Shown here in pieces: positions 12,101-48,607 of a stretch of 64,000 nucleotides of DNA. The notes beneath the pieces were generated by a model. The model saw only the letters and a list, made by a program, of their open reading frames with translations, did not search any database and had not been told where the DNA came from. Source of the DNA: Barthelona sp. PAP020 (lineage: Eukaryota); contig JARQWU010000024.1 in the NCBI GenBank assembly GCA_040182905.1, forward strand, positions 1 to 64,000, written 5' to 3'. The position numbers and the translations under genes are program-made. Position 1 is the stretch's first letter; every line of letters starts with the position of its first letter.

Positions 12101-12502
12101 ATCTTCAGTATATCCAAAACATTCAAATAATCTTTTTTTGTCCTCAGATAAAGTATTAAAATCAACCAATTCAATTAATGCTTTCTTTTGTTCAATTTCC
12201 TTGAATAATAAATCACGTGTACCTTCACATAATGCTAATTGACGTTCTTGACTTTTAGAAGATTCATTCAAAAACTTAGAAATTTGAACAATAGTTTGAT
12301 GAATTTCTCTTTGAAACAAATCATCTTTTGATGAAAAATATTTAGATAAACTTGATTTGGCTTGCTCAAAAACAGTTTCTTCAGAAATTTCAGGATAAGT
12401 GATATATTTTGAAGCAATATCAGATGTATTCTCCTTAAAATTAATGAGATCGTGAGTATTAAAAGCAAGTAATTCTCTTGTTTCAATGTTAACAGTGGCC
12501 AT
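3140..12502 (-). CDS. Giant HECT-domain E3 ubiquitin ligase (HERC-type HECT)
   Basis: C-terminal FKGEHSIDAGGPYNE, FLRFVWGRSRLP and LPTAGTCYFRLNLPSYSSKEILREKL with the catalytic Cys; 3120 aa with no intron. Confidence 0.92.
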   Translation of the reverse strand: MATVNIETRELLAFNTHDLINFKENTSDIASKYITYPEISEETVFEQAKSSLSKYFSSKDDLFQREIHQTIVQISKFLNESSKSQERQLALCEGTRDLLFKEIEQKKALIELVDFNTLSEDKKRLFECFGYTEDEFYGLTSALYLISSKMLMKYDEKVKFKTLNNLKSIVESNDEELSIKNWRADVLYQIVISVGEEMIRCKSPNLLNLTIDILLKIREIYPNVVISARVDFFMLQYVKIHEEINIGDYPMKNYTFCPLQGIYENKVGTFNVNMPKDLTKFIFFKANNRLFSYRVVGGEKDKEKKLYEVNDKGFNNFMNIKTGTHVCGFRNGLVFLNRSKDVGKMVFTYHDLETGNEETFKPFKIGRGNFFKEVTHITSDDSIIFLHNSGMGHMMGAYDICKNKVIKKSNSVDSFRMEKNSEFSSIVIFHGRDQIMNIYLNSETKKWCIHWDSTSSKDNSSEEIKREFNNVKNRLNELGAVNGYLDPVNGDLVYLYPIQQENKEEVEYKTITIKMNSLHYGKHISLNKRVIMDTYNIPKKIKKDADGNVIHEDITNNDFIRCFFRSAEYIGHISNYSHYSRILASFDQVKDTVIFSFDVFYDLFHLADVSYTWFEESLREYQNDTTEKTLFNVHKYFEIYHHSLYILYNNIQQLSYIGVDLRKIVEVEKIETFYQSLTKFIIEHLNRMNMINNDEFGLDISFILGNLQKIAFHYFALMDFTSKDIFIDLIDIFCKKELKSTELEYFYHVFEIFTENIPNYVEIFMNRNFETFTDILNHENPLTLMLFEKYLMLIDYILVYLDKNFEETSSKVIVTCLLKEIDHILERTMANVSHIYDIERFEKSFIIFQLPKILLNLILIKADLFNGNESLCRSIASKMSKIIFDLIESDHNENPLIDYCLKVYSQFFGFILSMQYSEALIVKNIQNNQGNSFINVFIESGMFDSLRDEKSVDSEHNLSPVLMEIYEFVEYLVENFKGKIFKYEIPQNSVITKLIEKLAAEIGPGTQPSARIPILIGKLSLVILVLYHLCHNAGDLFTVVDCLSNDSQTNDPILNVIIETLKRLFNEISVGIEGLRRHMNDEYRSKHNIDGTNRIIYPKLSQLLLKKLTFALKFKKMPLKANTIGMTALCPPSPTLNANSIKAELVSVDNDLVIDEIILKQRFLNKYLLKMLTESEIHIFQNYIESGASRIGAINSIFADYCDYVKNWDNNDCCGLSFSNILRSILNTNVKIVNINNITRFNDNKNFWNEESLISLFEINLPLSDSHDELFSFIITKNLNFDDKDDESVLHFIPYFIVANSAENLMTLYQNIIRDMDPQHIPENLRLPFVSMSRVVLANGLKTLASFAKSMMQDKLLQNIETILNKNKVTPLGKMLYELFDSNKEISIEDNDELDVPSFSICDDINMNDENSNTLYVEHFRELIENETVSALPMFIEHFEEVIILLDAMNFLTIDPLQLMNPSLLISGLIIFLTYGSAAMQYSSYRLLLKCFKTISTVIKENDSNFIKDVVYILFGLSCSNNISRENPKPFSKFNNFEKLFKFRAVVPNIFKDNKLEFNETVNYIHSKNVQHYSQILLRYLLTFESVEYKKKQKALKQLEFTMPNAQINDNLHKNNLWEKVIQNLINETFTEFITDFNFTAYDKFMKFIKDPDNKRTQIIDYGIQVSLLPLNKLSSIFNILGFDSIDYCIGDHVHFNFKANNDVDSRELDGLLVNSDFKCDGCTVFHELRGFIEINKKDILNVTWNNDIPKISTFDDYPLISEIFNQLFILRRGWDYDQALDRSKKSLATKKLFHIPNVIQMYEGLVKTRVNALGLLVNTFDKNDLKDFQKVLPISTILNMFKMLPGEIEPFLNKDEDENGLPIFPSFISGYTSSQIKNLSYLFNSLAMTTGRRDNTIREVTYKCYVDKKSASSNWLQFLDTTSDLLKGFQSNDYIKYNKKSKKLEFVYEVGELKVKDELNRTQFMESSETDIINCFGIYNKTKEMKIPVVILMNRKTNVNEVYQFNGEYCRFEQILDVDFKDENEWNKIQIHSEANTDQVKFDKKKDQSAYKFNLKNNLALCVKSPEILDFTLLSGQNISNYDDKNGTLLFINYFDQMILFNTLYQQMYLRDLIIRNLCNFAISVTDVNSLSKSQGLPNPSALVKKLMNQIINASYDNISGVLEFTNNLMNDESQYELRNLRMLQPVIVHIFDNLILDETNDELTSAIFDFSQYFFSLNDSFIESQHPLPTSDVESEPVSFFISKVDEYEITLDHKTNLKNAKLTFYDNKNHKIKEFTGEHSSLDKTPFIIRCNEFKYTWEHNETNKIYGFGFTIKPKANLVKYELPFSVHVIKMLLKDLKEQLSNFTSNKVIECSNILNYYFQLFIDYVWVNQHDTSLEKELSTLCEETKLLLLKLVALEQFPNLNWGMSSTDKLPMFIKQKLDNMMSDSRSTNSKPIIEELSILSLINSSIKSLHVADEYETLFNTLSLFNYGHLMEIQSFAKNKHFRREFLYSIFSPQHSHLGQAIPFETHHPARSYEYVLTIPANNELGYFMVFDPESVNHTITVEGYKNQTISDCSQIYRIETNRQRMTLRMNSSNNWGVRALLIPFGKPMPITHNLMTDDEFLLFERNVDRLMCDTFFQNLFMRILNNIDAIDAYRIGLFNKNDLPTYDKCTLTGNNIDILYKQLNIDQELFNQCDLSVQQAHYLIQFTTVIGSSLPLIFNFISKISEKDASLRNIFRVDTVLRNLIPAEIRVKQFKDQIENLLTNSGVHDINFNRIHENGKEPEPIFDQLCKASSNMSIDCWRNRNRMFKANFKGEHSIDAGGPYNELLSHLFDQVRENGIMFIATPNNVGNHGVDRDAMMPYPIVQSNVDWYTFGLLLGGLICGNHPVNFPVSSVFYSMILDIPFELRHLRLLDDGLYERVSLILKGYDTNGVELKEDNFDTFIQHQAMSFIDISGNEVDLIPNGSSIKLSWDNKDVYAAMLLELYPKQWISVINEVRKGFNYVIPAKHLNNLCENDLMYLVSGSNDYEVDYLFDTVGDGIPSDKCVTWLKEVLKEANPEIRAQFLRFVWGRSRLPKPCPSKFHLSMSGSGNRLPTAGTCYFRLNLPSYSSKEILREKLLVAITCINIDND

Positions 12503-18397: not shown

Positions 18398-21300
18398 TCA
18401 AATGATATAACTAGGAGAAGGAATGAATTCTTCAACAGCATGTCTTTTTTCCAAATCCATCTGACTCAATAATTCTGTCCAATCATCTGATAAGTTATGT
18501 CTCAATTGTTCAAAAGTATCAATGACTATACTCTTCAATTGTTTAAAATGTTTTCTTTGAATATCATTAGATATTTTAGTTGCCAAATTTGATGTAACAT
18601 TGACAAAACGATAAAGGATTTCAAAAATTTGATCACTGGTGAATAATGAAACGATATTAGCTGTGATACAAGACCCAATTGACAAGAATGCCCCTCTAAC
18701 AGCATTGAATTCAACCTTATCAGAATCATTCAAATAGGCTTCGATGACGTCAAAATCATAGTTTGTCTCTTTGATTAATTCACTAGGAGTTAATCTGTAA
18801 TACATCTTTTCAATTAATTTCAATGCACTTTCTCTAATATCAATATGTTGAGACAATAAAAATTTATTAAACATATTCACGTATAAAGTACCTTCAGGAA
18901 ATAGTGTATTTGGATCAATATTGGTCATACAAAACTCTAAAAACTTTAATTCAATGGAATAATGTAAAGACTTTTTTAGTAAAAATTTCTTCTCTCGGAA
19001 GATCAATTCACCTTTATCAATAACGTTAAACATATCAATAACTATTTTTGAAATTAAACCAGTTAAATAAGGTTCATTTGCATTCAAATCTAGCCCTCTT
19101 TGAAGAAAATCACTGGCATTTGCTGCAATGGGAACGCAACTATGATTTTGCAATATCAAAGCCAATTGAAACAATATAGAAACGTTTGTATTGAAAGAAC
19201 ATTGTATGGCATGTTCACAACTGCTAAAGATACCTGTAAAATAGCTAATGGTATTTGAATCGATTTCATCATCATTTTTACCAAAAATGCTTATTCCTTT
19301 AATGGCCATTTCTTCATATAATTTCAACAGAGAAGGGGGAATTTGACAATCTTTTAAGTCCAAATCAAATAAATCAACAACTTTTGTGACATAAAAATCA
19401 GAAGAAGAAATGGCTAAAGTAGATACAGATATGATATAACCCCGAGTAAATGCATTTCCATGTGCCAATATGTTGTTCAAAAGATCATATCCAAATGATT
19501 CAAAGAAATAGGTGCTATAACTTCTAATAAAAGAACAGAAATAAAAAGAAAAATATGTTGTATACAACTGTACATACAATTGATTCTTAGTTTCCTTGAC
19601 TAAACTCAAATAAAGATCAATAAATGGTTTAAAATGCCTAGGATCAGTAGGTAAAACATCCATCAAATTAATCCTGCTAAAACTTTGTACCAATTCATTA
19701 TGAAATTCTGTAATTACCAAATATTTCTTCAATAATGGTGTAAATATCTCAAAGAAACGTTTATAAGTGGAAAAATGCATATAAGGAATTCCAGAAACAA
19801 ATCCATGGAACATGGTGGCAAAAGCCATAGCTCTAGTCTCAATGACTATATCTTCATTATCAAAGAACTCCATACTATCATTAACAAGGTCTAAAAATGG
19901 TAATTGACCTAATCTAATCAAATGACTAAAAACACCACTTACAAATTTAATACCATTAGTTCTGTTGGCAAAATTTAAGAAGAATGTTTTCATTCCATCA
20001 GAATTTGACAAAATATCAATGATTACATGCCCAAATTTAGATAAATGAGCCTTTTCAAAAACTTCAAATTCCCCATTAAAAATACGAGGAAATTTAGTAT
20101 CCAAAGTACGGAAAAGATTTAATGCTGAATATGGTAATGAATGGTAGGTTCTAGCATTGTCAATTTTGCCAAAGAAATCAAATTCATTTACCCAATCATT
20201 AGGACTAATGAAAGGTTTTAAGTTTTCATATTCCATGAGTTCATAATTAGGCCAATAATTCATCATGATCTCCATCAATAATAAACTGATGAACAATACT
20301 GAATTTTCAAATACTCTTTCTGTTGAAATGAACTCTAAAACTAATTTGAAGAATTCAAACACATAATCAGGATTATTGGAAGTAAAATTTCCAATTATTA
20401 CTGGAATAGGTAACAATACTTCCATAAACATCAATTGTGCAATGAATAATTTTCTATATCCTAGCAAACCATTAAAATTATGCTTGATTTCAGGTATCAA
20501 TTCCAAAATGATTGCATCTCGACGTAAAGATTCCTTACTTTGAGCTAAAGTAATGGATTCAAGCATCTTACAATCCAAATAATCATCTCCAATCAAAACT
20601 TTCGTTCCATCATTCAATTTTTTATCTGTGATATTTCCAAAATTATTACTCTTTGTAAACGAATACAATGAAACCGTTTGTGTACTGATCTTTTCAATAT
20701 ATTTTTTTTCACTTGATTCTCCTTCCCATAATAATGGAATGACATCAACAATCTTATGAATTTTGTGAAATTCTAAAATTTCTTCAAACATGAAACCATA
20801 AACATTATACCTTCTCTTTGTTTCTCTACGATTTATAAAAGATATTAGTTGTTTATTGTAATGCTCATCTACCAATTCACTTTCAGTAGGATACATTAGT
20901 TTCAATGATCTTTGGAAAAAATTCCTTTCAAAATGTACATTATCCAGTGGTGGAATGAATATTGTTCCAGCAACACTAGTTGGATCAACATAACCAAAAA
21001 AATCGAATAGCAAGTCAAATTCAACCTTTTGAAATCGGTTTATGTTATTAACACTACAAATCAAAGTATATAAAGAACTGAAAGAATTCATTGCAAAATT
21101 GACAACACATGAAACTGACCAATTAGTAATGTTAAAAGGTAAAGTTTCTGAATGAACTGATAATGCTTTGATAGTAGGAGAATAGAAATTTTGTGCCACA
21201 CTACAAAACCAATCTTCTATTCCTGCCCAATTACCAAAGACAAAGGAAGTAAAAACATTCGATATTTGTGAAGATGCAAACAAATCGTAAATTTTTAATT

Positions 21301-23968
21301 GATCAATAATCAACTGCATCATTGAATAATAAAATTTAAAGAAACCAATGTTTTTTAAATGGGAATTTGTTGAAAATATTGTGTTGAAATTTTCCATCAT
21401 CTCCAACATCTTCAATTCACTTGGAATAGTACTTTTCACATCATCAAATTTGTTTGGAATAAACATTAAGGTAGGATATAACATGAAAAACCGAAATAAG
21501 TTTCTAACAACAATATCTATCGGTAAATCAGACAGATCTTTAATGTTTAACCTTTGTAAATCTTTTAAACCATTCAAATAAACAAAGGAACCCCATTCAA
21601 TTTCAATAGGGTCAAAAGATTCAACAAAATTCAACCAAAATTCTCCACCAATCATTTTAGAATTTACTTCATTGTCAATCAAATATTCTTTAGGATTCAA
21701 TAAAAAAATTACAGACTCAAGATATTTGCTAATAATGGTGAGAGCTAATCGATGTTGAAAATCACCAATCTTAGTCCAAGTTATTTCATAACTACCCAAA
21801 TCCAAGTTCAAAGGTGTATTTAAATGAGTGCGGACCGAGTTTTTAAAATATGGAAAATTTAATTGAGGGATTAACAAATGTGGAAGCAGAATTTCAAACC
21901 CCATACAACTATATCTAGAGATAACTGGCTTTTTATGTTCAAAAATATTGTTCAAAATAAAGAATAACTTGTTGATATTCTTTTCAGTGAAAGCTGTTGA
22001 AATGGAAAAACAACACAATTCTGCCAGACTGCTGATGTACATCAAAGTAGCATCACTTGTGGATTCTGATAAAAATTTCATACATTGATTTAATATAACA
22101 TCAACTAATTCTGGTGATATCCAAAGAACAGTTCGAACAATAGCATTCATTATTTCCCAATTTATTGTGCGAGAATCAGTCATTATAGCAGTAAGTAATC
22201 TTTTACTGAAAATCTTCCCTCGTTTAACACTAACGGATAAAATGAAATGAATCACCAATTTAGAAAACATTTTATGGTGTGAAGATCTCAAATCTAACAA
22301 AAAGGTAGCATAATCAATCAAATAATCTTCAAATTGAGGAATAAAAACTTCACTTAGATAACAATGCAATTGTTCTTCATTCTCAGACATATCTTCATAT
22401 TCAGAAACATCATCATTTATGATGAATTTGCTAAAAAAACTTATGAAAAAATATTGTACTTGCTTTTGTAAAGCAGCATTTGAAAAATGCCTAGACATTT
22501 CCATAACATTATTTATTTGAGTTACAATCTCATCAAAAGCTTCTATCTTCAACAAAGTGGGAATAATTGCAGTAAATAAGGGAACAGTAAGCATTTTCTT
22601 GAATGGTGTTGGAAAATTGTTGCAAGAATGAATTATCCCTTCAAATAGATCTTTGATAAGAGGCTCAACACAAGGTATCACTTGCAGAATCTTAATTGAA
22701 CCAAAAAAGGTTAAGGACTCAGAATATGTGATTCCTTGCTTGCAGATATCCAAAATTCCTTTGGCTAACCATTGAAAATCATCAGTTGTTAACATTTTAT
22801 TTGGATTCAGTAACCCTTCAAACTCATATGGAACCGTTTGAACATAATAACGCTTAACTAAAGCTTCTGAAATGGATTTCACAAATTGACCAAATGCTGC
22901 AGTGGCTGGATGTGCTTTTGATGCCAAAAAAGAAAATTGTTGAACCATACGTTCAATTGACTCTCTTAAAGTGTCTCTTTTTTCAATATAATGATGTATG
23001 CCTAAAAAGTCAAAAGTTTCAACATCATCTACAAAATTACTGTACAATGATTGAATGAAAGCATAACCTAAATTCTTATTTATCTTTAAACATGATTGAT
23101 CATCATCAAAAAACATCGTCAATACACACAATTGAGTTAATTCAGGATGATATAAGTTCGGAAAAAATGCAAATAGATTCGTCAACAAACAGGGTATTGT
23201 GGTATCAACTGCTGACATATCTGGATGTATCAGGATAGATCTAATCAATTTGACAACTATTGCGGGTAATTCCACAACGGTATAATTCTTCAAAGCATCA
23301 TTTATTCTTAAAATATAGCTTTTACCAAAATTTGCCTTTGATGCACTCCAGTATGTTGAAGGCTCATGCTCCAAATTCAAGATATTACTGAAGTTTATCA
23401 TTTTAGCAATAAATTCACATTCTTCTTGAAATGTATTGTCAACAGGATCATATATTTTAAAAATTTCTTCAATTAGATAAGTATATCCGGTGTCATTATT
23501 AACAGGATCGTAATAATAAGGGTTCAACAATTCAATAAATCTATAGGTTAACGCCTTTAAATCAATACCTCTATGAATAGATTCAACACTTCTTAATTGT
23601 TTTAACGATTCATAAACAGAACGTACATTAATTCGGATATCTAAAAAACCAGGAAACGCTTTTAAAATTCCTTTTGATAATTTTACCATACGTTGAACAA
23701 TAATAGCATCTAAAGATGTATAAAATAAGCATTGATAAGTTAGTTTAACAAATTTGGAATGAAATAAAAATAATTCATTTCCATAACACGCTTTTTCAAT
23801 ATATTCTAATGTATTTAAAATGTTTTCAAAAGAATAATCCTTCAAAAAATTGACCAAATCTTCAAATAATAAATTTAACAATGAAGATTTTTCCAAAACA
23901 AGATCATTTAACTCATCATTTAATAAAACTATTTCATTAAAATCAGTTACAGACTCAAATATATCCAT
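18398..23968 (-). CDS. PSME4: Proteasome activator PA200/Blm10 (PSME4)-like HEAT protein
   Basis: ~1850 aa helical protein. C-terminus TFEQLRHNLSDDWTE...FIPSPSYII resembles PA200 TLS.FRRTH.DNW...SP.YYA. First ATG at 23968 (the ORF track starts at TTG). Confidence 0.7.
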   Translation of the reverse strand: MDIFESVTDFNEIVLLNDELNDLVLEKSSLLNLLFEDLVNFLKDYSFENILNTLEYIEKACYGNELFLFHSKFVKLTYQCLFYTSLDAIIVQRMVKLSKGILKAFPGFLDIRINVRSVYESLKQLRSVESIHRGIDLKALTYRFIELLNPYYYDPVNNDTGYTYLIEEIFKIYDPVDNTFQEECEFIAKMINFSNILNLEHEPSTYWSASKANFGKSYILRINDALKNYTVVELPAIVVKLIRSILIHPDMSAVDTTIPCLLTNLFAFFPNLYHPELTQLCVLTMFFDDDQSCLKINKNLGYAFIQSLYSNFVDDVETFDFLGIHHYIEKRDTLRESIERMVQQFSFLASKAHPATAAFGQFVKSISEALVKRYYVQTVPYEFEGLLNPNKMLTTDDFQWLAKGILDICKQGITYSESLTFFGSIKILQVIPCVEPLIKDLFEGIIHSCNNFPTPFKKMLTVPLFTAIIPTLLKIEAFDEIVTQINNVMEMSRHFSNAALQKQVQYFFISFFSKFIINDDVSEYEDMSENEEQLHCYLSEVFIPQFEDYLIDYATFLLDLRSSHHKMFSKLVIHFILSVSVKRGKIFSKRLLTAIMTDSRTINWEIMNAIVRTVLWISPELVDVILNQCMKFLSESTSDATLMYISSLAELCCFSISTAFTEKNINKLFFILNNIFEHKKPVISRYSCMGFEILLPHLLIPQLNFPYFKNSVRTHLNTPLNLDLGSYEITWTKIGDFQHRLALTIISKYLESVIFLLNPKEYLIDNEVNSKMIGGEFWLNFVESFDPIEIEWGSFVYLNGLKDLQRLNIKDLSDLPIDIVVRNLFRFFMLYPTLMFIPNKFDDVKSTIPSELKMLEMMENFNTIFSTNSHLKNIGFFKFYYSMMQLIIDQLKIYDLFASSQISNVFTSFVFGNWAGIEDWFCSVAQNFYSPTIKALSVHSETLPFNITNWSVSCVVNFAMNSFSSLYTLICSVNNINRFQKVEFDLLFDFFGYVDPTSVAGTIFIPPLDNVHFERNFFQRSLKLMYPTESELVDEHYNKQLISFINRRETKRRYNVYGFMFEEILEFHKIHKIVDVIPLLWEGESSEKKYIEKISTQTVSLYSFTKSNNFGNITDKKLNDGTKVLIGDDYLDCKMLESITLAQSKESLRRDAIILELIPEIKHNFNGLLGYRKLFIAQLMFMEVLLPIPVIIGNFTSNNPDYVFEFFKLVLEFISTERVFENSVLFISLLLMEIMMNYWPNYELMEYENLKPFISPNDWVNEFDFFGKIDNARTYHSLPYSALNLFRTLDTKFPRIFNGEFEVFEKAHLSKFGHVIIDILSNSDGMKTFFLNFANRTNGIKFVSGVFSHLIRLGQLPFLDLVNDSMEFFDNEDIVIETRAMAFATMFHGFVSGIPYMHFSTYKRFFEIFTPLLKKYLVITEFHNELVQSFSRINLMDVLPTDPRHFKPFIDLYLSLVKETKNQLYVQLYTTYFSFYFCSFIRSYSTYFFESFGYDLLNNILAHGNAFTRGYIISVSTLAISSSDFYVTKVVDLFDLDLKDCQIPPSLLKLYEEMAIKGISIFGKNDDEIDSNTISYFTGIFSSCEHAIQCSFNTNVSILFQLALILQNHSCVPIAANASDFLQRGLDLNANEPYLTGLISKIVIDMFNVIDKGELIFREKKFLLKKSLHYSIELKFLEFCMTNIDPNTLFPEGTLYVNMFNKFLLSQHIDIRESALKLIEKMYYRLTPSELIKETNYDFDVIEAYLNDSDKVEFNAVRGAFLSIGSCITANIVSLFTSDQIFEILYRFVNVTSNLATKISNDIQRKHFKQLKSIVIDTFEQLRHNLSDDWTELLSQMDLEKRHAVEEFIPSPSYII

Positions 23969-27598: not shown

Positions 27599-27644
27599 AC
27601 AATGTAAATTTTTTCTTATCAATTTTTTTTTGTTTGTGTTAAAT

Positions 27645-28334
27645 ATGAGCGAAATTGTAGGTGATAATTTTTTTAATTTAATGTTCTAACCATAATAGTA
27701 TGAACAAATATTAACAGTTGTACCAAATGCAAAATTATACAAAGCTGGTCAAAGATCCAGTGCTCAAGGAGGATATCGTTGTTCAGAATGGACTGAGAAC
27801 GATTTCATTTCAAAGGCTAATGTTGATGTATTGGGAGTTGGTGAAAATGTGATCATCAAATTAACGGACCCTGACACTCAAACTTTAATTTGTAAATGTC
27901 CAATTAGGAACAATTTATCTGAAGTTGTTGAAAGAGCTATTGATTCTTCAAGATATTATGTTGTTGTTGCTGAAGATGATGAAACGGGAAGAAAGATGAA
28001 CGTTGGTTTGGGTTTTAACACCCGAAATGAATCTTTCAGCTTTTGGGCAGCAATTACTGATTATATTAAAAGAAGAACTGAAATTGAAAATGCAAAGAAT
28101 GAGGCTGAGACTAGTCAAAATGTTGATTTTTCTCTAAAAACTAATAAAAAAATATCATTAAATATCGGTTCGACTGTTAGTGCTGGTTCAACCCCCAAAA
28201 AAGCATCTGGAAAAAAACTTAGCAAATTAACTTTACGAAGTGGAAATCGAAGTATGAAAACTCGGACTACAATAGATGATAAGGAAGAACCTTCAAAAAA
28301 TCTTAGTAATGATATTGATTTGTTGAATTTATAA
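27645..28334 (+). CDS. NECAP: NECAP (adaptin ear-binding coat-associated protein); exons 27645-27656 and 27699-28334
   Basis: Spliced N-terminus MSEI|YEQILTVVPNAKLYK...GYRCSEW, then VERAIDSSRYYV and GLGFNTRNESFSF (PHear domain). Confidence 0.88.
27657..27698 (+). other. Spliceosomal intron, 42 nt
   Basis: GTAGGT...TTCTAACCATAATAG. It contains an in-frame TAA, so it must be removed to link ATG 27645 to the NECAP frame. Confidence 0.8.
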
Positions 28335-28824: not shown

Positions 28825-29409
28825 ATGAGTCAAAATAAACGATCCTTGCAGTTTAAAATAGGATTATTGGGTAATATGCAAGCTGGAAAAACGACCCTAA
28901 TGGTTAAATATGTTCAAAACAGATTTGATTCTTCATACATTGCAACATTGGGTGTTAATTTTATGGAAAAAGCAGTTACTTTAAAAAATGCAGTTATTAA
29001 TTTCTCAATATGGGATTTAGGTGGATCAAAAGACTTTTCACAAATGTTGCCTTTGGTTGTATCTGAGGCACATGCTTTATTATTTCTATTTGATTTAACC
29101 AACAAAAGTTCACTATGGGCTATTAAAGAATGGTATTATCAAGCGAGAGGACATAATAGAACTGCTATACCCATATTAGTTGGTACCAAATATGATTTGT
29201 TTTGTGAATTATCTACAGAGGAACAAGCAGAAGTGACGACTTTAGCTAGAAAGTATGCAGCAGCAATGAAAGCACCAATTATTTTTTGTTCATCTGCAGT
29301 TGGTGTAAATGTAAATAAAATATTTAAAATAGCTTTATCGAAGGTCTTTCAAATTCCTATTAACGTTCCAAAAGTTTTAGAACCAGGTCAACCTATTATT
29401 GATTATTAA
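28825..29409 (+). CDS. TEM1: Tem1/Spg1 small GTPase
   Basis: KIGLLGNMQAGKTTLMVKYV, TLGVNFMEK, FSIWDLGG, MLPLV, IKEWY.QARG.N, VGTKYD, PIIDY C-terminus without CAAX. Confidence 0.93.
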   Translation: MSQNKRSLQFKIGLLGNMQAGKTTLMVKYVQNRFDSSYIATLGVNFMEKAVTLKNAVINFSIWDLGGSKDFSQMLPLVVSEAHALLFLFDLTNKSSLWAIKEWYYQARGHNRTAIPILVGTKYDLFCELSTEEQAEVTTLARKYAAAMKAPIIFCSSAVGVNVNKIFKIALSKVFQIPINVPKVLEPGQPIIDY

Positions 29410-29571: not shown

Positions 29572-30138
29572 TCAAGAATTATCTTGGGTATCTGTATCTG
29601 TTTCTGTTGTGACCGTTGAATTTGTTTCAGTTGGGACAGTTAAATCATTAGGTATCATTGAATTGAATAAATTTAAGATTCTTGAAAGACCTTCTGCAGG
29701 TTGAGCCTTTTGCATTGTAATTTTCACACCATATTTGCTTGTTTGATCTGTACTTCTTTCATGATTTGATGCAGAAGAAAATTGTGTATTAAATTCAACA
29801 TTAGACGTCTTTAATGATCCTTCAGAGGTTGAACTTGTCTTATAAGTCTCAGTTGTTGCAGAAGTTACTTCCATTTGAAAATCAACAGTAAGTTCATCGA
29901 TGCTTAATGTTGGAATGTTCACAAGAGCTGCTGCGGGAACTGCAAAACTTAAACCTTTTCCATTTGGCAATTTAATTTGAAAATTTTCAGTTGTTTTTGC
30001 AAGTTCTTGAACTATTGGAACACTTGCAAGGGCTAATTCATTTTGGGCTTCTGCGGCAGCCAACAACGGTGCAGAAAATAGCTGCTTCATTGTTGTTCCA
30101 AGAACACCTTCACTAGCTGTTGATACATTATTGGCCAT
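29572..30138 (-). CDS. DUF2589-like protein (standalone)
   Basis: LFSAPLLAAAEAQ, VP...LVNIPTLSIDELTVDFQMEV, Ser/Thr-rich hairpin, RSTDQTSKY.V......PAEGLSRIL: the pattern I recognise for DUF2589. Confidence 0.8.
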   Translation of the reverse strand: MANNVSTASEGVLGTTMKQLFSAPLLAAAEAQNELALASVPIVQELAKTTENFQIKLPNGKGLSFAVPAAALVNIPTLSIDELTVDFQMEVTSATTETYKTSSTSEGSLKTSNVEFNTQFSSASNHERSTDQTSKYGVKITMQKAQPAEGLSRILNLFNSMIPNDLTVPTETNSTVTTETDTDTQDNS

Positions 30139-30379: not shown

Positions 30380-33300
30380 TCAAAAACGATATTCTATCCA
30401 TTTTTTTAAGCCTTTAAACAATTCTTCTGGAGATAAAAACGCTAACAACCAAAAAAAAATTTTCGTAGACCAAAAATCCTTTGCCAACAAATCAAAGCTG
30501 TCTTCAAACAAAAATAGAGTATCATGACGCAATTGTTGAACAGATTCTGCGGTTAAATTGGATTTACGAATATGCAATATGAGAATACTTGAATCAGACT
30601 TTTTTTCTTGATCAAATTCCTGTTCTTCCCAAAATTGATATTTAATTTTCCAAAATTCAAGATAATAAGCCAAAAAATTGACTTGAAAAGAAGATAAAGA
30701 TGCTTTATGTATCAATACACAGTACAAAGGGATATTTATCAAACCATTTAAGGGATTTTGAAAGGAGAATTTTTGGGTTTGACTTTCTCCTTCTAGCATA
30801 AAGCTCAAATGTTGTAAAACATAATTTTCTTTTATCCACACATCTTTGGCGGCTTTATCACTTTCATAATGTGCGGGAAGAAGTGGAGAAGCATTTGGAA
30901 TTTCAAATTGTTTTTTTTTAAAAAAGAAGGAAGGTAGCTTTTTTCTGGAAATTGTTTCAGTTGTTGAGATAATGGTAAGATGAGAATCTGGAATATCAAA
31001 AGGATCTGCGGCTTCGAATAAAATATGAAAAATCACATCAACATTTAGCGAATCATTTTTTTCAATTTCGTTCAACTCAACATCAAACAAACCACCATCT
31101 ACAGTTGAGCAAATATCGATAAGTAAACTTAAAAAATGATATAAAGTATTGAAATTAAACTTCAACTGAATGTTATACGCATCCATTGTTGGAAAAAATG
31201 TCGTTAAAAAATACAAATTCATAGCTTTGAAAATATTTTCAAATAGAACACCTGAATCGATTCTGATGACATCTGAGTAGTGCCAATTTGAAAGGGTTCT
31301 CAAAGTCTCTATGAGTTCATATGCCTTTTCAACAGTGAAACGCACAAACTTCCCTTCAATTTGATTACTTTGGTTTAAAAGAGATGATTGGAGATTCATG
31401 TGTTTATTCATTTTGATAGACAACGAATCGAATATATTATAGAGAGAATTGGTCAAAAAATTGAAATTATTCTGACAATCCTCTGGTAAAACAAGCACAT
31501 ACAGAATAGTGGGGTCCAAAGGGTTCAAATAACAAACAATACTAATGTCAAATGGCAAAATATTCTGATATAAGGATGAAACATGAATTCTTGGGGGTAA
31601 ATGGTCAGTTGAAGCCTTTGAACTTATTTCTGCCAGTTTTTTTTCAATGAAAGTCTTTTTTTGTAATAGAAAAGGAATATCCAATTTTAGAATAACATCT
31701 TGTAAATCTAACCATTGATTTGAGGGAATGCTGCATTTTTCGGTGATTTTACCAGAACTGTAGAACAAATAAGGCTCTTTGTTCAAATCAATAGAAATCA
31801 ATGAACAATATCCCTGATAGAATAAAGCTTTAAAACTTTCAAACTGTCGAGTTAGAATATCATGATTCACTTGCAATTCAGAGGCAGGAATCAACATAGC
31901 ATCTAATCTTTCTATGAAATAATAGCCCGACTCTTCATCATAAAATCGCTCAACTTCAAACTCCATTTGATATGCTCCTTGACGAGTTTGAACAATTAAC
32001 GTTGTATTTTCAGGGTTTTGATTTATAGTTCCTTCCATTAAATAAGCCTCCAAACGAATCTGTGTTTCAGGCAAAAAGTTCTCAAGAAAATCCTCTAAGA
32101 TCATCTTTTCGAGTTCAGCAGACGTTCCGTTGCTATTGAACATGTTGGTTTCAACCATTCCTGAATTCGCCAAATAAGTGAACGTGTACCCATCATAGGT
32201 TTCGGAGATTCGACTTAAATCTAAGAAATTATCTATCTTATTGGGCATTCCAATAATAGGTGTACCCAATCTCATTTGGTTGGATTTGAATTGTTTCAAA
32301 GATTTTCCAATTGTTGCGATGAGATTCAGCAGGTCATGACTATCATCACCCTTTAGAGAAGAACTTTTCAACTCAATGTTCCAAAAAACAAAGAATGAGC
32401 CACGATTCTGAAAGGGAATTATTACATACCATGACCTTTCCTTATTTTCGTTTTTGCTACGTACAAATTCATGTGATTGAACGCATATAATATTGCGGTC
32501 TTGAACCAATACTTTTTGAACAGATTTTTGTTCAATAGGCACTAATTGATAGCGTTCCAAACGATCATCCATTTTAATTACAAAAGAATTTCCAAAATTA
32601 CCAATTTTTGCAACTAACACATTCATTTCATTAATGTCCTCAAAATAATAGGGACAATTATCCTCTTCTGCACCAAAATAGAAATAGTTAATCCCATTTT
32701 TGGACCAACTCGTTGTAACTTCAGTATCAACTTCAGTGACGTCACTTGAAGAGAATTCTGAAGAAATGGATCGTCTACCTTTGCGTTCACCATTATTAAC
32801 AACGCTAGAACCAGAATGGAAACAAACTTTGATCTTTTGATGAAAACCAGTGGCAAAGACATCCAAAAATAGATTTGCTAATCTTTGAACGTGATCATGT
32901 ATACTCATGTTCTCAGAAATGAAGGTTCCTAAGAATTTCACCAAATGAGCTACAAACAATTGAGAATTCTTCTTCTTTCTTCCATTTACATCAACAAAAC
33001 ACACAAAGATATTACTATTTAATTCATTTTGATAATAACGTTGAAACATATACAATTTAATTTTCTTCAATCCATTAATGTGGGAACTCAAAAGAGAAGG
33101 TGTGGTTGTCTTACCCAAAGTACTCATTGAACTAGCATTTGAATCATCCGATATATCAACTATCTCATAAAATTCTTCCCCACACATTTGAAATTCATCG
33201 ATATCTGTTGCTGTACTATTTTTGTCTGCAAATTCTTGAACAATCTTTTCGTGCTCATTTTTTCGTGAGTCCCACAACAAAGGTTTCAAAGAATTTTCAA

Positions 33301-34345
33301 TATGCTTGTAATTTTCCAAATAACTTCTCAATTCGACGTCATAAATTGCATAAGATACTCCAGTTTTGGTTAATACTTCATAAATCATTGGATCAAACAT
33401 ATCTAAAGGTTTTAGAGTATTTCTTAAAAAAATAAAACCATGAAAAATCAAGCTTACACATACAACAAGTATAGTTATCAATATTGCTAGAATTAAATCA
33501 ACATTTTGCTGTAAGGTTGTGTTTGGATCAACTAAAGGACCAAATGTTTTCAATAAAGTCAACAGAGTTTCTATATCTTCAGAAGTAGAGATAAATTGTA
33601 ATGTGGATGAATAACTAAACATTAAATGTTCCTTCAGATCTCTGTTAGCAACTATTTCTTCATTTGCGAGCATCAACAGTGGACTTACACCAAAAGCTGT
33701 TGAATGACGAGTGGAAAATTCAAACTCATGATAAACTGAATACTCACCAATTGAATCAAAAAAAAGGCAATATTGTAACGAATTAACCAACAAATAATCA
33801 CATGCCAACCCTTTGGCAAAATGATCGATAGAATTCTCAATAGTTTGAAAATATAACACATTCTTAAATCTAGCAGAAGATGTAGAATTCAATAACGTAT
33901 CTAAATAAGTATAAACAAAATGAGATTCAATACAATAGCATAAAATACTTTCTTCAATACTCTTTGATTCTTGATATAATAATACAGGTGTTATCATCGA
34001 AATTTTATCCACATTTGTTGAACAATGACCAAAAGATTGATTGTAATTGATCATCAAATACTTATTATATGCAAAAGCTTCATTATTTAAATAATACATT
34101 AACTCTAATGGAGTGCCTATAATAATATTCTTCCCAGTAACAAGGGTTTGATTTGTAATATCAATATATTCACAAGAAAATGTTGTTTCTTCATCAAAAG
34201 TATTAAATATATTTGAAAATGTGTCAATGTTAATGTCTCTATACTCGTAATTATTAGATATCAAAATATCATATTCCTTTGTTAAAATTACACTCAATAA
34301 AATGGTAAATATAACATTATGTAATTTTAATTTAATAAAATTCAT
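30380..34345 (-). CDS. Single-pass membrane receptor-like protein with degenerate histidine-kinase/receiver-like C-terminus
   Basis: N-terminal signal peptide; one TM (LILAILITILVVCVSLIFHGFIF); C-terminal LYHFLSLLIDIC....GGLFDV, KFSFQNPL and CVLIH...FLAYYLEFW. Confidence 0.45.
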   Translation of the reverse strand: MNFIKLKLHNVIFTILLSVILTKEYDILISNNYEYRDINIDTFSNIFNTFDEETTFSCEYIDITNQTLVTGKNIIIGTPLELMYYLNNEAFAYNKYLMINYNQSFGHCSTNVDKISMITPVLLYQESKSIEESILCYCIESHFVYTYLDTLLNSTSSARFKNVLYFQTIENSIDHFAKGLACDYLLVNSLQYCLFFDSIGEYSVYHEFEFSTRHSTAFGVSPLLMLANEEIVANRDLKEHLMFSYSSTLQFISTSEDIETLLTLLKTFGPLVDPNTTLQQNVDLILAILITILVVCVSLIFHGFIFLRNTLKPLDMFDPMIYEVLTKTGVSYAIYDVELRSYLENYKHIENSLKPLLWDSRKNEHEKIVQEFADKNSTATDIDEFQMCGEEFYEIVDISDDSNASSMSTLGKTTTPSLLSSHINGLKKIKLYMFQRYYQNELNSNIFVCFVDVNGRKKKNSQLFVAHLVKFLGTFISENMSIHDHVQRLANLFLDVFATGFHQKIKVCFHSGSSVVNNGERKGRRSISSEFSSSDVTEVDTEVTTSWSKNGINYFYFGAEEDNCPYYFEDINEMNVLVAKIGNFGNSFVIKMDDRLERYQLVPIEQKSVQKVLVQDRNIICVQSHEFVRSKNENKERSWYVIIPFQNRGSFFVFWNIELKSSSLKGDDSHDLLNLIATIGKSLKQFKSNQMRLGTPIIGMPNKIDNFLDLSRISETYDGYTFTYLANSGMVETNMFNSNGTSAELEKMILEDFLENFLPETQIRLEAYLMEGTINQNPENTTLIVQTRQGAYQMEFEVERFYDEESGYYFIERLDAMLIPASELQVNHDILTRQFESFKALFYQGYCSLISIDLNKEPYLFYSSGKITEKCSIPSNQWLDLQDVILKLDIPFLLQKKTFIEKKLAEISSKASTDHLPPRIHVSSLYQNILPFDISIVCYLNPLDPTILYVLVLPEDCQNNFNFLTNSLYNIFDSLSIKMNKHMNLQSSLLNQSNQIEGKFVRFTVEKAYELIETLRTLSNWHYSDVIRIDSGVLFENIFKAMNLYFLTTFFPTMDAYNIQLKFNFNTLYHFLSLLIDICSTVDGGLFDVELNEIEKNDSLNVDVIFHILFEAADPFDIPDSHLTIISTTETISRKKLPSFFFKKKQFEIPNASPLLPAHYESDKAAKDVWIKENYVLQHLSFMLEGESQTQKFSFQNPLNGLINIPLYCVLIHKASLSSFQVNFLAYYLEFWKIKYQFWEEQEFDQEKKSDSSILILHIRKSNLTAESVQQLRHDTLFLFEDSFDLLAKDFWSTKIFFWLLAFLSPEELFKGLKKWIEYRF

Positions 34346-43504: not shown

Positions 43505-46500
43505 TCAGTCACTTACTTTAGCGACCAATTTTTGTTCCAATCTGGCTAACCCTTCACTTGGTTCTTGAGCTTTGAATCCAATATGAATTTTAGTTGACCT
43601 TGAATCCTTTCCTTCATATTGAGAAGAATTTTGAATATCCACTCCCAAAGAATAACTTTCCTCTCCCTCTTTTGTTTTTTGATATCTACCACTAGATAGG
43701 GCCATTTGCAAATCCAATTCAACTTCATCAACAACCAAATTCTTGTTTGATACCATTGACATCAAAGGAACATTGATTTGACGATTCTCAAGACTAAAAT
43801 CATCAGTATCTGCATTTCTATTTGCTTGATCAACACTTAAAGATACTTGTTTTGGTCTGTAAGCAACAACATCGGTTAATTCCCACTTTTCTAATTGTTC
43901 TTCTGACATTCTATCCATCAAAGAAATCATTCTTTCCAAATTAGACAGCTGAGCTGACCGTTGACTATCCAATACTGATTGATAGATAGCTGTCAACATA
44001 CCATCAAAAGCAGAAATTGGTTGAATTTGTTCGATTGAATCAGATTCAACAACAACATCTTTTTTATTGGCATTTGTGAAAGAATCAAGCATATTATCCA
44101 CACTATTTTGGACATTATCAACATCAAATTCATTTTTCTTCTCTTTAACTTCTTCTTCCTTCTTTTCAAGAACATCTTTGTTAATTTTTTCAATAAAACT
44201 AATTGTTACACCATAAAGATTATTATTGAAAGAATTGGATATTGCCACAATCCATGAGAGAATATACATCAATAATACAATATAAAAATATGCTCTACTG
44301 ATAGTTTGGAAATTTTCTCCATATTGTTCTGAAGTTAAATAAATAGATGAAGGGTTTAAATAAGTATCTTGAGATTTGACCAAAAACAACGTCCCAACAA
44401 ATTCACTAATGAAGGTTATAGTCATGGTTATAACGTAAGCTGTTTTATCAGTTAAGACGATACCTAATATGAATGAAACAATGTACAACAAAGTGGCAAT
44501 ACCTCTAATTATTGTACCAAAAGACATATAGAGTCCTAAATCCATGTTCAAAAAGAAAGAAGTAAACACAAAAGGCAGTAAGCCCGTAAATCCTTTGATG
44601 AACAAAAAGAAGACAGAAGCAAAGGATTGAGATTGTTTTATAGAATGAATAGTGTTTACCAAATGAGGTTGGTCAAAATATGATATTCCAAACAAAATCT
44701 TATATGTCGAATTCATCAATTCATAATCCTGATCATGTTTCCTTGCTTTAAAATTATCAAAATTACTTTCATTTTCAAGATCTGGTGATAAACAATTATA
44801 TGAAGGAACAAAGAAAATCAAGGCAACGGCTTGAATGATCAAATATATTAACTGAAGAATATTATCAATCTTGTAATAACGGACATCGCTCAAACATTGA
44901 GCATCTCCCGAATCCAAAGAACTTAAAGATAACAGGAGGGTAATCATAACCAAGAAGAAAGTCAAAATAAAAGCAGATCTGAACAGTAATACTCTTTGTT
45001 CTTTATTCAATATCGCCTTTTCCCATTCTTTATCCAAAAATTTAACAGTAGTTCGTTGTTCCTCAAATATATATTTTTGTTTCTCAAAATCACGAATCAA
45101 TGTGGAGAGACATAAATCCCTCGAATATTTATCCAAAATATTACAATTCCAAGTGTCAACTAAATACTTTTCATATTCTTTCAAAGTTTCCAAATCATTA
45201 TCTTCGTATATGATTTTATGACTGGCTTTATCTTCAGCACTGTACAAAACTTGGTTTGTCCTTTCAATACTGACCCAATGTCTAACTTTATCCAACTTTT
45301 GTCCATATATATTACTAATTCTATAATCAGCAACAGTATGTCTAACGCTAGAATTCAATTCTTCCACAAAAAGCTTTTCTCCTAACATATGCAAATTAGT
45401 CTCGGGACATTTATACATGAAAATTAAATCATGCTCAGATAAATTGAATGAAGGGTCTTTTTTCTTTGCTTTGATCAAATCTTTTTGGAATTCCTTCGTT
45501 TTTAAAAGATCTTGTAAGGCCTTTTCATAATACTTTTTGAACTCTGGTGACATTTCTTCATATGATAGCAATTTATCAGCAAATTCTCTCATACTCTTCA
45601 AATCTTGTTGATATATATTGTCATCACTGTATGTTCTTTCATATCCTTGGAAGATTTCACCCAAAATAACCTTTAATATTTCATTTTTATTATAAATATT
45701 GATTTGTGAAACTATTCCTTCCTCATACTTTCCAATTAACTCATTTAATTCGTGAGTTTCATTGTGAATCGATTCAATCTGCCCATATTCATAAAATCTG
45801 AGTATCATGCGCAGATAACGCTCTAATTCATTAACTTCATTGAATCTATTTCCTAATTGACTTAAAAGGTCATCAAGTTCAAATATGTTTTCATTCGCTG
45901 AATCTAAATTTTCAGATTTCAAATGCAACAATCCTTGATGTTTTAAATACTTGCTGAACGTGTCATAAAACATATCCATGTATTCTATTCTATTTAATAA
46001 TGTGAAAGAATGGTCACTTTTCAATAATGAAAAGAATTCAAGATAATTTCTCAAACTTCTGAGCATCAAAGGACACTTGGCAAAATAAGTGTTAAATATT
46101 TTATTCTTATCATACAAACGGAAAAAGAAATCTCGCAAATTTTCTTTTTCTTCATCGTTCATTTCTTCAGTCATTCTCATCAATTCAATTCTAACACAAC
46201 CATTCTCATCCAATCCATCAGGAATCAAATATCTATCAGCCAAGTGCAACACGTTATCTATTGTAATAAGTGCATCCAACTTTCCTTGATAGTGAAACAA
46301 CAAATCAGTGAACATATGAGATAATACATTACCCAAGTAAGTATCTTCATCGTTATCAACAGAACCAATATTATCTATCAATCTGGAACGAATCAATTGC
46401 AGTTCAGCAAGAGAGAGTTCTTCCATATCTGCTAAACATGATTTGATTTCATCCAACACATCAATTTTGAAATGATTCACAGAATTTAAATCTCCTTTTT

Positions 46501-48607
46501 TCGTTTGAGACATTTTGGTGATAAATTCCTCAATAGTCAAATCTGTTCCATCATTTGTAACATACAAACTAACAATGTCCTTGACTAATTGAATGGGGGA
46601 ATCAATAGCCATCTTTTCTTTGATAAATTGCTGAATTTCAACATTATATCCTTCTGTATATAACAACAAATACATATCATCAACAAAATCACTGATGAAT
46701 TCTGTTCTTTTAACATTGTCCTTCATAAATCTGACATCTTCATAGAAAAATAAACATTCATGCAATAAATCAAAGATATGAATTTCAACTTCATCATTCA
46801 TAATGTCCAACATGTTGCTCTTAATGTTATTATACAAATCATCAACACATTTAAACTTCATGCGATCGTCTGTTCCGTCTGCACTAACATTAAAGAAAAA
46901 ATAGTGCAAAATGTGCTTAACCAAGAATTCAGTAAACAGTTGTTTTTGCTCATTCACTTGTTTTGACAAAGCAGAAGGAAAATGCAACAAATTCAAATTC
47001 TGATGATTCAAATCTTGGAATTTTTCTTGATAATACATGAATTTATGGAAAATTTTACTGAATATCTCATTCATACGCTGTTTTTCAAGGGAAATTTGTC
47101 GTTCTGCAAGAACACCTTCTCTATATATAGTTTCAACATATCTGTAACTGGATATATAAGGAATTGTACCTAAAAGTCCAAACAACGCTCCAGACACTTG
47201 TAAAAACAACCTGATCATGTTAAACATGGTAATGGGACATGATGAATTAACTCCAAAGAAGTCAAAAATTGCAACAAATAAAATTAAAAAATTAACAATT
47301 ATCAACAGATAAGATTGATAATGGCTATCCTTTATTTGACACCTGAATGGAACAACGTGATTTTCACTAAATGTTGAGTGCAATTCTAACAATAACTCTT
47401 GTAATTCTGAACTTGAAAAAACAGAAAAACCAAAAAGGTTGTTAACACTGATTGGTGGAATTTTATAAGGAGTATCTGCCTTACAATATACCAATTGAGC
47501 GATAAACTCTTCATCAGATCTAAATTTAGACTTAGTTTCAAACTTTTTGGCACCTGGATAATTATACAATCCAACAACAACAATAGCGTCAATAGAATTT
47601 TCTTCATCACCATTTATATCATTAGCAGTATAACCAATCAATCTTGACTTAATACCAGATCTCAAATAATTGATAAAACCAATCATGAAAACAAAAAGCA
47701 GGAAAAAAGTGAACACAGTGAAAAACCAGCTTGAGTTAAGGCTACTTAAAGAAAAATCTGTTGCTTTATCATAAATATCAAACCCATTTTTGGCACAAGT
47801 GAGAACCAAAAAGAAAAATGCAGTGAATAATGAATATTTAAATATTTTGACGTGTAAAATCAGATCGTAGTACGACTTTAATATCAGACAATCAGGAGGT
47901 GATAAAACAGAATTAGTTTGAAACTTGTTCTTCAAACATTGCCTGTAATTAGGCCTTCTATTGGCAACAGGTACAGGATTTAAATCATCTGTGCTTGTTT
48001 CTTCCTCACTTTGAGATATATTACTGTCATTGTCCCCTCTTTCTTGTTTAAAATAATCAGTATCTTTATTTTGGGCAACATCATCAAACTCTACAGGTAA
48101 AACATCCATAGGTTCCGATGGTAGAATACCAAAGAGTGAAACAGCCATACCTAAAAATAAACAGAATAAATATCCAAGAAAAAATATATGAGAATAACCT
48201 AAATCAGAAAAATTGACAAGATATTGTTCTATTTGTGTCATACATACAAATAAACTTAAGACAAAAACGATTAACATAAATCCAGGTGACTTTTTCAATC
48301 TTTCACGTTTATCACTAATATTAAAAACATCACTTTCATCATCTCCACATATATATCCAAAATTTAGATCTTTTCTCAACTTAAACGAATATTTTAACTT
48401 AAATCCATCCGAAATAGCCGCTTTAGTCATTTCGGATTCCTCAAATTTTTTCCTTTTTTTAAAATATGAACTAACATATTCATCAAAGTCCAATTCTTTT
48501 TTCATAGTCGCAACACTTTGGTTTTTGAGTGATGATTGGGCAGTTTGCATCATAATACTTTGTTGCCGAAACATACCTTGTCTCTGCTCCGATTCAGGAG
48601 AAGACAT
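43505..48607 (-). CDS. Polytopic membrane protein with C-terminal DUF2589-like domain
   Basis: Two clusters of hydrophobic helices flank a ~700-aa helical region. The last ~170 aa read FDGMLTAIYQSVLDSQ...VPLMSMV...L.VDEVELDLQM...KIHIGFKAQEPSEGLARL. Confidence 0.75.
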   Translation of the reverse strand: MSSPESEQRQGMFRQQSIMMQTAQSSLKNQSVATMKKELDFDEYVSSYFKKRKKFEESEMTKAAISDGFKLKYSFKLRKDLNFGYICGDDESDVFNISDKRERLKKSPGFMLIVFVLSLFVCMTQIEQYLVNFSDLGYSHIFFLGYLFCLFLGMAVSLFGILPSEPMDVLPVEFDDVAQNKDTDYFKQERGDNDSNISQSEEETSTDDLNPVPVANRRPNYRQCLKNKFQTNSVLSPPDCLILKSYYDLILHVKIFKYSLFTAFFFLVLTCAKNGFDIYDKATDFSLSSLNSSWFFTVFTFFLLFVFMIGFINYLRSGIKSRLIGYTANDINGDEENSIDAIVVVGLYNYPGAKKFETKSKFRSDEEFIAQLVYCKADTPYKIPPISVNNLFGFSVFSSSELQELLLELHSTFSENHVVPFRCQIKDSHYQSYLLIIVNFLILFVAIFDFFGVNSSCPITMFNMIRLFLQVSGALFGLLGTIPYISSYRYVETIYREGVLAERQISLEKQRMNEIFSKIFHKFMYYQEKFQDLNHQNLNLLHFPSALSKQVNEQKQLFTEFLVKHILHYFFFNVSADGTDDRMKFKCVDDLYNNIKSNMLDIMNDEVEIHIFDLLHECLFFYEDVRFMKDNVKRTEFISDFVDDMYLLLYTEGYNVEIQQFIKEKMAIDSPIQLVKDIVSLYVTNDGTDLTIEEFITKMSQTKKGDLNSVNHFKIDVLDEIKSCLADMEELSLAELQLIRSRLIDNIGSVDNDEDTYLGNVLSHMFTDLLFHYQGKLDALITIDNVLHLADRYLIPDGLDENGCVRIELMRMTEEMNDEEKENLRDFFFRLYDKNKIFNTYFAKCPLMLRSLRNYLEFFSLLKSDHSFTLLNRIEYMDMFYDTFSKYLKHQGLLHLKSENLDSANENIFELDDLLSQLGNRFNEVNELERYLRMILRFYEYGQIESIHNETHELNELIGKYEEGIVSQINIYNKNEILKVILGEIFQGYERTYSDDNIYQQDLKSMREFADKLLSYEEMSPEFKKYYEKALQDLLKTKEFQKDLIKAKKKDPSFNLSEHDLIFMYKCPETNLHMLGEKLFVEELNSSVRHTVADYRISNIYGQKLDKVRHWVSIERTNQVLYSAEDKASHKIIYEDNDLETLKEYEKYLVDTWNCNILDKYSRDLCLSTLIRDFEKQKYIFEEQRTTVKFLDKEWEKAILNKEQRVLLFRSAFILTFFLVMITLLLSLSSLDSGDAQCLSDVRYYKIDNILQLIYLIIQAVALIFFVPSYNCLSPDLENESNFDNFKARKHDQDYELMNSTYKILFGISYFDQPHLVNTIHSIKQSQSFASVFFLFIKGFTGLLPFVFTSFFLNMDLGLYMSFGTIIRGIATLLYIVSFILGIVLTDKTAYVITMTITFISEFVGTLFLVKSQDTYLNPSSIYLTSEQYGENFQTISRAYFYIVLLMYILSWIVAISNSFNNNLYGVTISFIEKINKDVLEKKEEEVKEKKNEFDVDNVQNSVDNMLDSFTNANKKDVVVESDSIEQIQPISAFDGMLTAIYQSVLDSQRSAQLSNLERMISLMDRMSEEQLEKWELTDVVAYRPKQVSLSVDQANRNADTDDFSLENRQINVPLMSMVSNKNLVVDEVELDLQMALSSGRYQKTKEGEESYSLGVDIQNSSQYEGKDSRSTKIHIGFKAQEPSEGLARLEQKLVAKVSD

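Follow-up and report, generated by a model that had tools for sequence, protein, structure and literature searches.

Among described systems, one close parallel to the proteins reported here is Pepco (Trypco1/2), which a preprint describes as SDS-resistant 9–10-mer beta-barrels that become active once cleaved after an Ile (bioRxiv 10.1101/2025.11.14.688446). DUF2589 proteins have the same predicted order of an N-terminal helix followed by a long hairpin, match the Trypco2 profile weakly over the hairpin, and carry a conserved Ile before a charged tail. In contrast to Pepco/Trypco2, they are longer (about 170–200 aa versus about 100–117 aa), carry an insert behind helix 1 as well as a C-terminal helix, occur as two types and, in the flanks scanned, are not regularly accompanied by a trypsin-protease gene. 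Holin–endolysin lysis cassettes and type 10 secretion are further comparison systems; prokaryotic DUF2589 genes likewise often lie beside peptidoglycan hydrolases, whereas the eukaryotic protein described below (P0001) lacks transmembrane (TM) helices, and its window showed no hydrolase partner. In aerolysin-family toxins, Ser/Thr-rich tracts flank the hairpin, which is a likeness to DUF2589, although DUF2589 lacks a secretion signal and is a two-type system. Lateral transfer of aerolysin-family toxins to eukaryotes has been reported (PMC3424411), and the theme here is the same, i.e. a bacterial beta-hairpin protein acquired by a eukaryote.

In the open full-text literature, DUF2589 has only passing mentions in prokaryotes, with no function and no eukaryotic description, and neither PF11655 nor IPR024510 is mentioned there. 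The supplementary files of PMC11316075 with readable text contain neither DUF2589 nor PF11655. Here we describe a DUF2589 gene in the window, i.e. the whole 64,000-nt stretch of contig JARQWU010000024.1 that was analysed, from the free-living anaerobic protist Barthelona sp. PAP020. Judged from sequence, the gene is likely one of at least eight related genes taken from prokaryotes, and its product belongs to a known family without assigned function, here in a new arrangement.

DUF2589 genes form A and B pairs in prokaryotes

Across 62 prokaryotic loci, chosen with B-like patterns, 52 carried two or three adjacent DUF2589 ORFs and 10 carried one intact gene. An even sample of 401 genomes from one phylum contained DUF2589 in 10, one of them the seed genome, and nine of the 10 had at least two adjacent copies. 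The upstream genes (A) and downstream genes (B) of the pairs formed two groups, which are homologous to each other (hhalign 97.8%). Atlas clusters of DUF2589 were 64–89% bacterial. Peptidoglycan hydrolases adjoined the pairs in five of 10 Pseudomonadota genomes (GH19 twice, GH24, an amidase and GH25; 13 chosen neighbour proteins scanned), and at other loci the pairs lay upstream of EEP, GIY-YIG, endonuclease, DUF261 or cyclase-like genes. Scans of 52 and 13 flanking proteins at prokaryotic loci revealed no trypsin domain, and none of 27 proteins matched the PADLOC anti-phage models at E 0.01 (2023 library). NCBIfam and PHROGs gave no meaningful match for 10 proteins each, annotated phages gave no match, and annotated plasmids gave one weak match.

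Some loci had further neighbours or domains. A bacterial A protein with an N-terminal LamG domain was found in Burkholderiaceae (L055:3123-6369), which indicates that A tolerates N-terminal cargo; this LamG-DUF2589-A fusion is followed by B and then by a protein with an Anthrax_toxA domain (E 3.3e-21), an order that resembles a binary toxin made up of a binding, a pore and an enzyme component. An unannotated family of 200–250 aa recurs directly downstream, and sometimes upstream, of Bacteroidota pairs (after B in L002, L010-L013, L017, L021, L027, L039, L043-L045, L047, L048, L050, L051 and L057), with no Pfam or PADLOC match in the members scanned. The Treponema loci (L005, L006, L016, L025, L030-L032, L036, L037, L041, L046 and L049) carry A+B+B′, then DUF261 and often a 320-aa membrane protein, which by eye has the look of a pentameric ligand-gated channel and has no Pfam match. 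In a single case, in Phocaeicola plebeius (L038:5938-8021), a DUF2589-B gene immediately precedes a phage tail sheath gene. At L029:2327-5726, a tip-less B gene has only a remnant of an A partner, and two large ORFs upstream of the B gene contain YVDD motifs, which by eye suggest reverse transcriptases. The B proteins P0039, P0092, P0111, P0115, P0123, P0124, P0136 and P0146 have C-terminal extensions of ~200 aa, with no Pfam match there.

A type-B DUF2589 gene lies among eukaryotic genes

The gene and its direct neighbours are:
29572..30138, minus strand: type-B DUF2589 gene P0001 (Pfam, B profile score, exact sequence in EukProt, hydropathy scan)
28825..29409, plus strand: Ras-family GTPase, convergent neighbour (Pfam; exact protein in EukProt)
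30380..34345, minus strand: 1,321-aa orphan, upstream neighbour (exact protein in EukProt)

The P0001 ORF is unbroken and encodes 188 aa. Its product is a member of Pfam DUF2589 (PF11655; E 3.7e-21, 76.5 bits against a gathering cut-off of 23 bits) and is of type B, since it scored 111.9 bits to the B profile versus 52.3 to the A profile. In agreement, P0001 fell on the B side of an A/B tree with support of 99/98 (IQ-TREE; 49 rows, with 20 A and 27 B kept after identity and length filters). Neither a signal peptide nor a TM helix was evident in a hydropathy scan (N-terminal hydropathy at most 1.83).

The flanks are eukaryotic, with Pfam matches to a Ras-family GTPase (which we take to be Spg1/Tem1-like), a protein kinase, a papain and a HECT ligase; both the family and the eukaryotic surroundings were therefore as the original prediction had them. 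The papain gene lies 3 kb from the P0001 gene, with no sign of a link. The 1,321-aa orphan has a hydrophobic N-terminus and one TM-like stretch near residues 290–310, with no Pfam match. Host-like composition, also claimed beforehand, was confirmed: the GC3s (0.158) and codon adaptation (0.704) of P0001 lie within the ranges of the other 23 window genes (0.13–0.245 and 0.65–0.76). The intronless state and the T-rich upstream tract had been counted as evidence as well. However, none of the 24 long window ORFs examined is interrupted and T/A-rich upstream DNA is similar in most, so these two features carry no weight. Very long unbroken ORFs at 3140-12502 (a 3,120-aa HECT ligase) and 18398-23968 (a 1,856-aa protein, presumably PA200-like) point to a compact, almost intron-free genome. 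A DUF1681 ORF at 27600-28334 (which we assume to be NECAP-like) matches profile positions 99–158 only; an intron or upstream exon is therefore likely, among the few possible introns in the window.

A type-A DUF2589 domain ends a predicted 12-TM protein

P0001 had been taken for a standalone gene. This was not the case, because a second DUF2589 domain ends the ORF at 43505-48607 and seven more paralogues occur in the same organism. The features of this second protein are:
43505..48607, minus strand: 1,700-aa orphan, the putative partner, predicted to have 12 TM helices and ending in a type-A DUF2589 domain (Pfam, TM scan, transcript match)
43523..43978, minus strand: type-A DUF2589 domain, fusion residues 1544–1695 (PF11655, A profile, tree)
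47162..48298, minus strand: predicted TM helices 1–6 of the fusion (hydropathy)
44225..44998, minus strand: predicted TM helices 7–12 of the fusion (hydropathy)

PF11655 matched the fusion at E 2e-10 for the whole protein and 1.5e-12 for the domain alone (41.7–48.5 bits; cut-off 23). The domain scored as type A by a margin of only 16 bits (52.2 bits to A versus 36.2 to B) and fell on the A side of the tree (99/97, IQ-TREE) on a long branch (2.67). A tree with P0001 and the fused A domain as one clade, which involves this long branch, was rejected (AU test, p 0.023), and both DUF2589 types were thus likely acquired. By hydropathy, the 12 TM helices fall into two sets of six, separated by a 720-aa domain. 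Their connecting loops are alternately long and short, which places the A domain on the side of the fusion N-terminus; going by hydropathy only, for location as for topology, the A domain would face the cytosol.

The fusion is 99.8% identical (1697/1700) to P0007, a Trinity protein of Barthelona sp. PAP020. A Trinity isoform, P0006, is 81% identical to the window fusion over the first 260 aa and matches beyond, a divergence that suggests a second gene copy or allele elsewhere, there being no second copy inside the window. P0006 was the only longer A-type fusion among 7,990 candidates scored, which is weak evidence of absence. For fusion residues 1–1500 only the protein's own cluster was found, the Atlas gave no usable match for residues 1180–1700, and the fusion had no internal repeat.

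The fusion and P0001 genes are on the same strand with A upstream of B, and are separated by 13.4 kb and six genes; they are thus not in tandem and their linkage is loose. The A-then-B order is possibly the relic of an operon. Compared with the prokaryotic A+B (and A+B+B′) pairs, the host has the same PF11655 membership, both types in the window, a Ser/Thr-rich hairpin region, no export signal, and an A protein with an N-terminal fusion, as in L055. In contrast to these pairs, the host is eukaryotic, the genes are non-adjacent, B is present in at least eight copies, A sits on a 12-TM protein and the hairpins are mostly polar; furthermore, no cell-wall hydrolase or toxin-like gene was noticed among the window ORFs.

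B paralogues and a probable prokaryotic origin

A phmmer search with P0001 returned 303 matches at E 0.001, of which 150 were listed, and all matches listed score as type B. Twenty of the 149 listed non-self matches were traced, namely 13 environmental or archive records and seven Trinity proteins in EukProt:
Seven Barthelona PAP020 B paralogues: P0017, P0020, P0021, P0043, P0044, P0046 and P0065

The eight host B proteins share 25–48% pairwise identity. Identity to prokaryotic relatives is only 26–41% and the trees single out no donor; a metagenome scan with P0001 gave one bacterial-type pair (34%) and no close relative. FastTree placed the eight host proteins in one group with support of 0.93 (176 rows, domains of at least 125 aa). 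In a more careful tree, the seven paralogues grouped together (81/84) and P0001 stood apart, beside spirochaete and Bacteroidota B proteins (85/90). The tree that unites all eight nevertheless exceeded the free search by 12.3 lnL (p-AU 0.69), which makes a single acquisition followed by expansion the preferred, if tentative, history. A spirochaete donor, hinted at by some trees, was dropped since the tree uniting all eight paralogues was better. We infer a single transfer of a prokaryotic A+B pair, with expansion afterwards.

The lateral acquisition originally proposed is supported by the prokaryotic A and B types, by the host paralogues, which nest among environmental and prokaryotic B proteins, and by the taxonomic distribution, as every named eukaryotic match among the 20 traced is Barthelona PAP020. 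Vertical descent from ancient eukaryotes with wide loss would suit the low identity to prokaryotic relatives and the absence of a clear donor, and 20 of 149 matches is the share traced to source. However, the seven named eukaryotic matches all come from one organism, and the Atlas clusters are mostly bacterial with the host proteins nested as above, making vertical descent very unlikely. Even less likely is a contaminant of bacterial origin or a chimeric assembly. Barthelona PAP020 is grown in culture with bacteria, and its first RNA-seq run used poly-A libraries (PMC7542792). Against contamination or chimerism, codon use is host-like, the gaps from the gene to its eukaryotic neighbours are just 162 nt and 241 nt, no Shine-Dalgarno-like stretch was visible upstream by eye, and the exact sequences of P0001 and both neighbour proteins are present in EukProt. 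The seven divergent paralogues and the A domain on a membrane protein of host style, for which a full-length twin exists among the transcripts, argue in the same direction, and the earlier view that contamination is unlikely was upheld. We are confident that P0001 is a host gene of prokaryotic origin.

The Ser/Thr-rich segment of P0001 is polar

The predicted parts of P0001 are:
29992..30090, minus strand: long N-terminal helix, predicted, residues 17–49 (AlphaFold2, block pLDDT 56–79)
29875..29907, minus strand: beta-strand 78–88 (LSIDELTVDFQ), predicted, corresponding to the first strand of the Trypco2-like stretch (AlphaFold2 and profile alignment)
29749..29868, minus strand: Ser/Thr-rich segment, residues 91–130, a putative long beta-hairpin with a polar, non-aromatic tip (composition, face hydropathy, pLDDT <50)
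29707..29736, minus strand: beta-strand 135–144, predicted, closing the hairpin region (AlphaFold2)
29575..29658, minus strand: C-terminal 28 residues, a conserved Ile(-Pro), then an acidic Thr-rich tail (eight-paralogue alignment, composition)

In residues 91–130, 19 of 40 positions are Ser or Thr; of the 17,795 40-aa windows that 23 other proteins of the stretch provide, two reach this content. From the conserved F to the conserved Y, the Ser/Thr fraction (0.49) exceeds that of all 80 prokaryotic relatives scored (median 0.36). The AlphaFold2 model of P0001 has a mean pLDDT of 56.7 and predicts, at low confidence, a conserved DUF2589 core of a long helix plus strands. Residues 93–133 are below 50 and are flanked by strands 78–88 and 135–144, so the model neither shows nor refutes a hairpin. 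Of the Ser/Thr-rich beta-hairpin originally predicted, the composition thus stands, as a family trait, and the structure was not displayed by the model. Foldseek with the low-confidence B model gave no matches at E 0.001, and the best VIA Z scores (4.2 for the B model and 5.9 for the A model) covered helical fragments only; with models this poor (pLDDT 56.7 and 50.9), fold searches carry no evidence on the fold. An aerolysin fold with an insertion loop was looked for in the same P0001 model, where the hairpin is below pLDDT 50, and neither aerolysin nor ETX/MTX2 was among the 25 most-matched Pfam families of 71 B or 47 A proteins. Sequence searches of the PDB returned nothing significant; a TssB match (E 0.34) was not accepted.

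An aromatic tip and a hydrophobic face are traits of membrane-crossing hairpins. Among long prokaryotic B hairpins, 56 of 64 bear two or more aromatics at the tip, and the face is hydrophobic (median 2.3; four B rows were skipped in the scoring). The P0001 hairpin has one aromatic near the tip and a face hydropathy of 0.94, against a bacterial median of 2.19; it departs from the canonical type-B hairpin, resembles the tip-less third genes of spirochaete operons and is a poor candidate for a membrane-inserting part. Seven of the eight host paralogues have a polar hairpin face (−0.58 to 0.94) and P0020 has a hydrophobic one (2.26); aromatic tips, with 2–5 aromatics, are kept in four. The Ile before the variable tail is kept in all eight host proteins in the alignment, which is a lead only.

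Trypco2 (PF19631) was weakly matched by 13 of 71 B proteins (best E 0.0011, below the family cut-off) and P0001 had no PF19631 match. By hhalign, an alignment of 11 Trypco2 sequences matched B with a probability of 30–33% over about 40 columns. The score was 27.6; 180 column shuffles reached no more than 20.4, and reversal gave 20.6. Type A gave no match (probability 0.3–1.6%). When the Trypco2 profile was run over 1,521 ORFs (135 of them DUF2589), the top 40 were all DUF2589, many of them interrelated. In these profile comparisons, DUF2589-B appears to resemble Pepco/Trypco2 beta-barrel pores weakly but reproducibly; Ser/Thr-rich hairpins of the two families can also be alike through convergence. 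The earlier reading of P0001 as a beta-pore-forming or polymerising protein therefore has some basis at the level of the family, in this likeness and in the aromatic-tipped amphipathic hairpins, but not in the polar hairpin of P0001 itself.

A possible membrane-tethered barrel

Because the type-A partner is fused to a predicted membrane protein, the proteins together would likely form a barrel anchored in the membrane. Our best explanation, which we hold tentatively, is that P0001 is a polar wall subunit of a beta-barrel ring on the type-A domain of the 12-TM protein. Of its parts, co-assembly of A and B is somewhat probable, and the ring being of barrel type falls a little short of an even chance. 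A prokaryotic A+B pair would have arrived in one transfer, B being copied into at least eight paralogues, and the fusion of A to the 12-TM protein would fix the site, e.g. a vacuolar membrane. The B subunits, including P0001, would bind the A domain, both at the cytosolic face, and long hairpins, one from each subunit, would make up a Pepco-like barrel; in this barrel, polar hairpins would serve as wall or vestibule and would not pierce the bilayer. Since most host hairpins are polar, such a ring would be a membrane-tethered collar or channel extension and not a self-inserting toxin. PAP020 is described as marked by large, mostly fluid-filled food vacuoles (PMC13087550), a site for the barrel that is tempting, on correlation only. 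More doubtful is the full picture, in which a metamonad domesticated a two-component beta-barrel system, with A on a 12-TM protein and at least eight B variants, as a combinatorial, membrane-nucleated barrel, possibly of food vacuoles and as a eukaryotic offshoot of Pepco-like pores.

A self-inserting pore of bacterial origin, directed against prey or rivals, would also use mixed B subunits in a Pepco-like barrel, perhaps once the acidic tail that follows the Ile has been cleaved off. The hydrolases beside Pseudomonadota pairs, the nuclease- or cyclase-like genes downstream at other loci, the four host paralogues with aromatic tips and the hydrophobic face of P0020 all fit such a pore, as do the invariant Ile, after which Pepco is cleaved (bioRxiv 10.1101/2025.11.14.688446), and the bacterivorous habit reported for Barthelona PAP020 with its vacuoles (PMC13087550). 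We nevertheless consider it unlikely, because seven of eight host hairpin faces are polar against a bacterial median of 2.19, no signal peptide is evident and a route to prey is not apparent, and the conserved Ile comes after an extra helix that is absent from the Trypco2 alignment. On a par with this pore in its improbability is a non-barrel structural polymer of A and B (a filament, lattice or coat), tethered to the membrane via the fusion: numerous divergent paralogues with polar hairpins fit a heteropolymer, as does the helix-plus-strand core, but the one characterised family to which the sequences are linked forms barrel-shaped rings. Still less probable is that the A fusion and the B family were co-acquired and are now independent, with B homo-oligomeric or acting alone. 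The fused A domain is highly diverged and non-adjacent to the B gene, and single intact genes do occur at 10 of the 62 prokaryotic loci; yet pairing is the rule in prokaryotes, both types have open frames in the host and the fusion has full-length transcript-derived twins.

Meaning for the family and the host

A membrane-anchored DUF2589 barrel in eukaryotes likely has no earlier description. A eukaryote with both subunit types, one fused to a membrane protein and the other expanded, is a natural experiment, suggesting that A is the anchor at the membrane and B the building block that varies. It offers concrete proteins for purification and allows a connection of DUF2589 with the newly characterised Pepco pores to be tested. 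For the organism, it means that a compact anaerobic protist devotes at least nine genes to a borrowed system.
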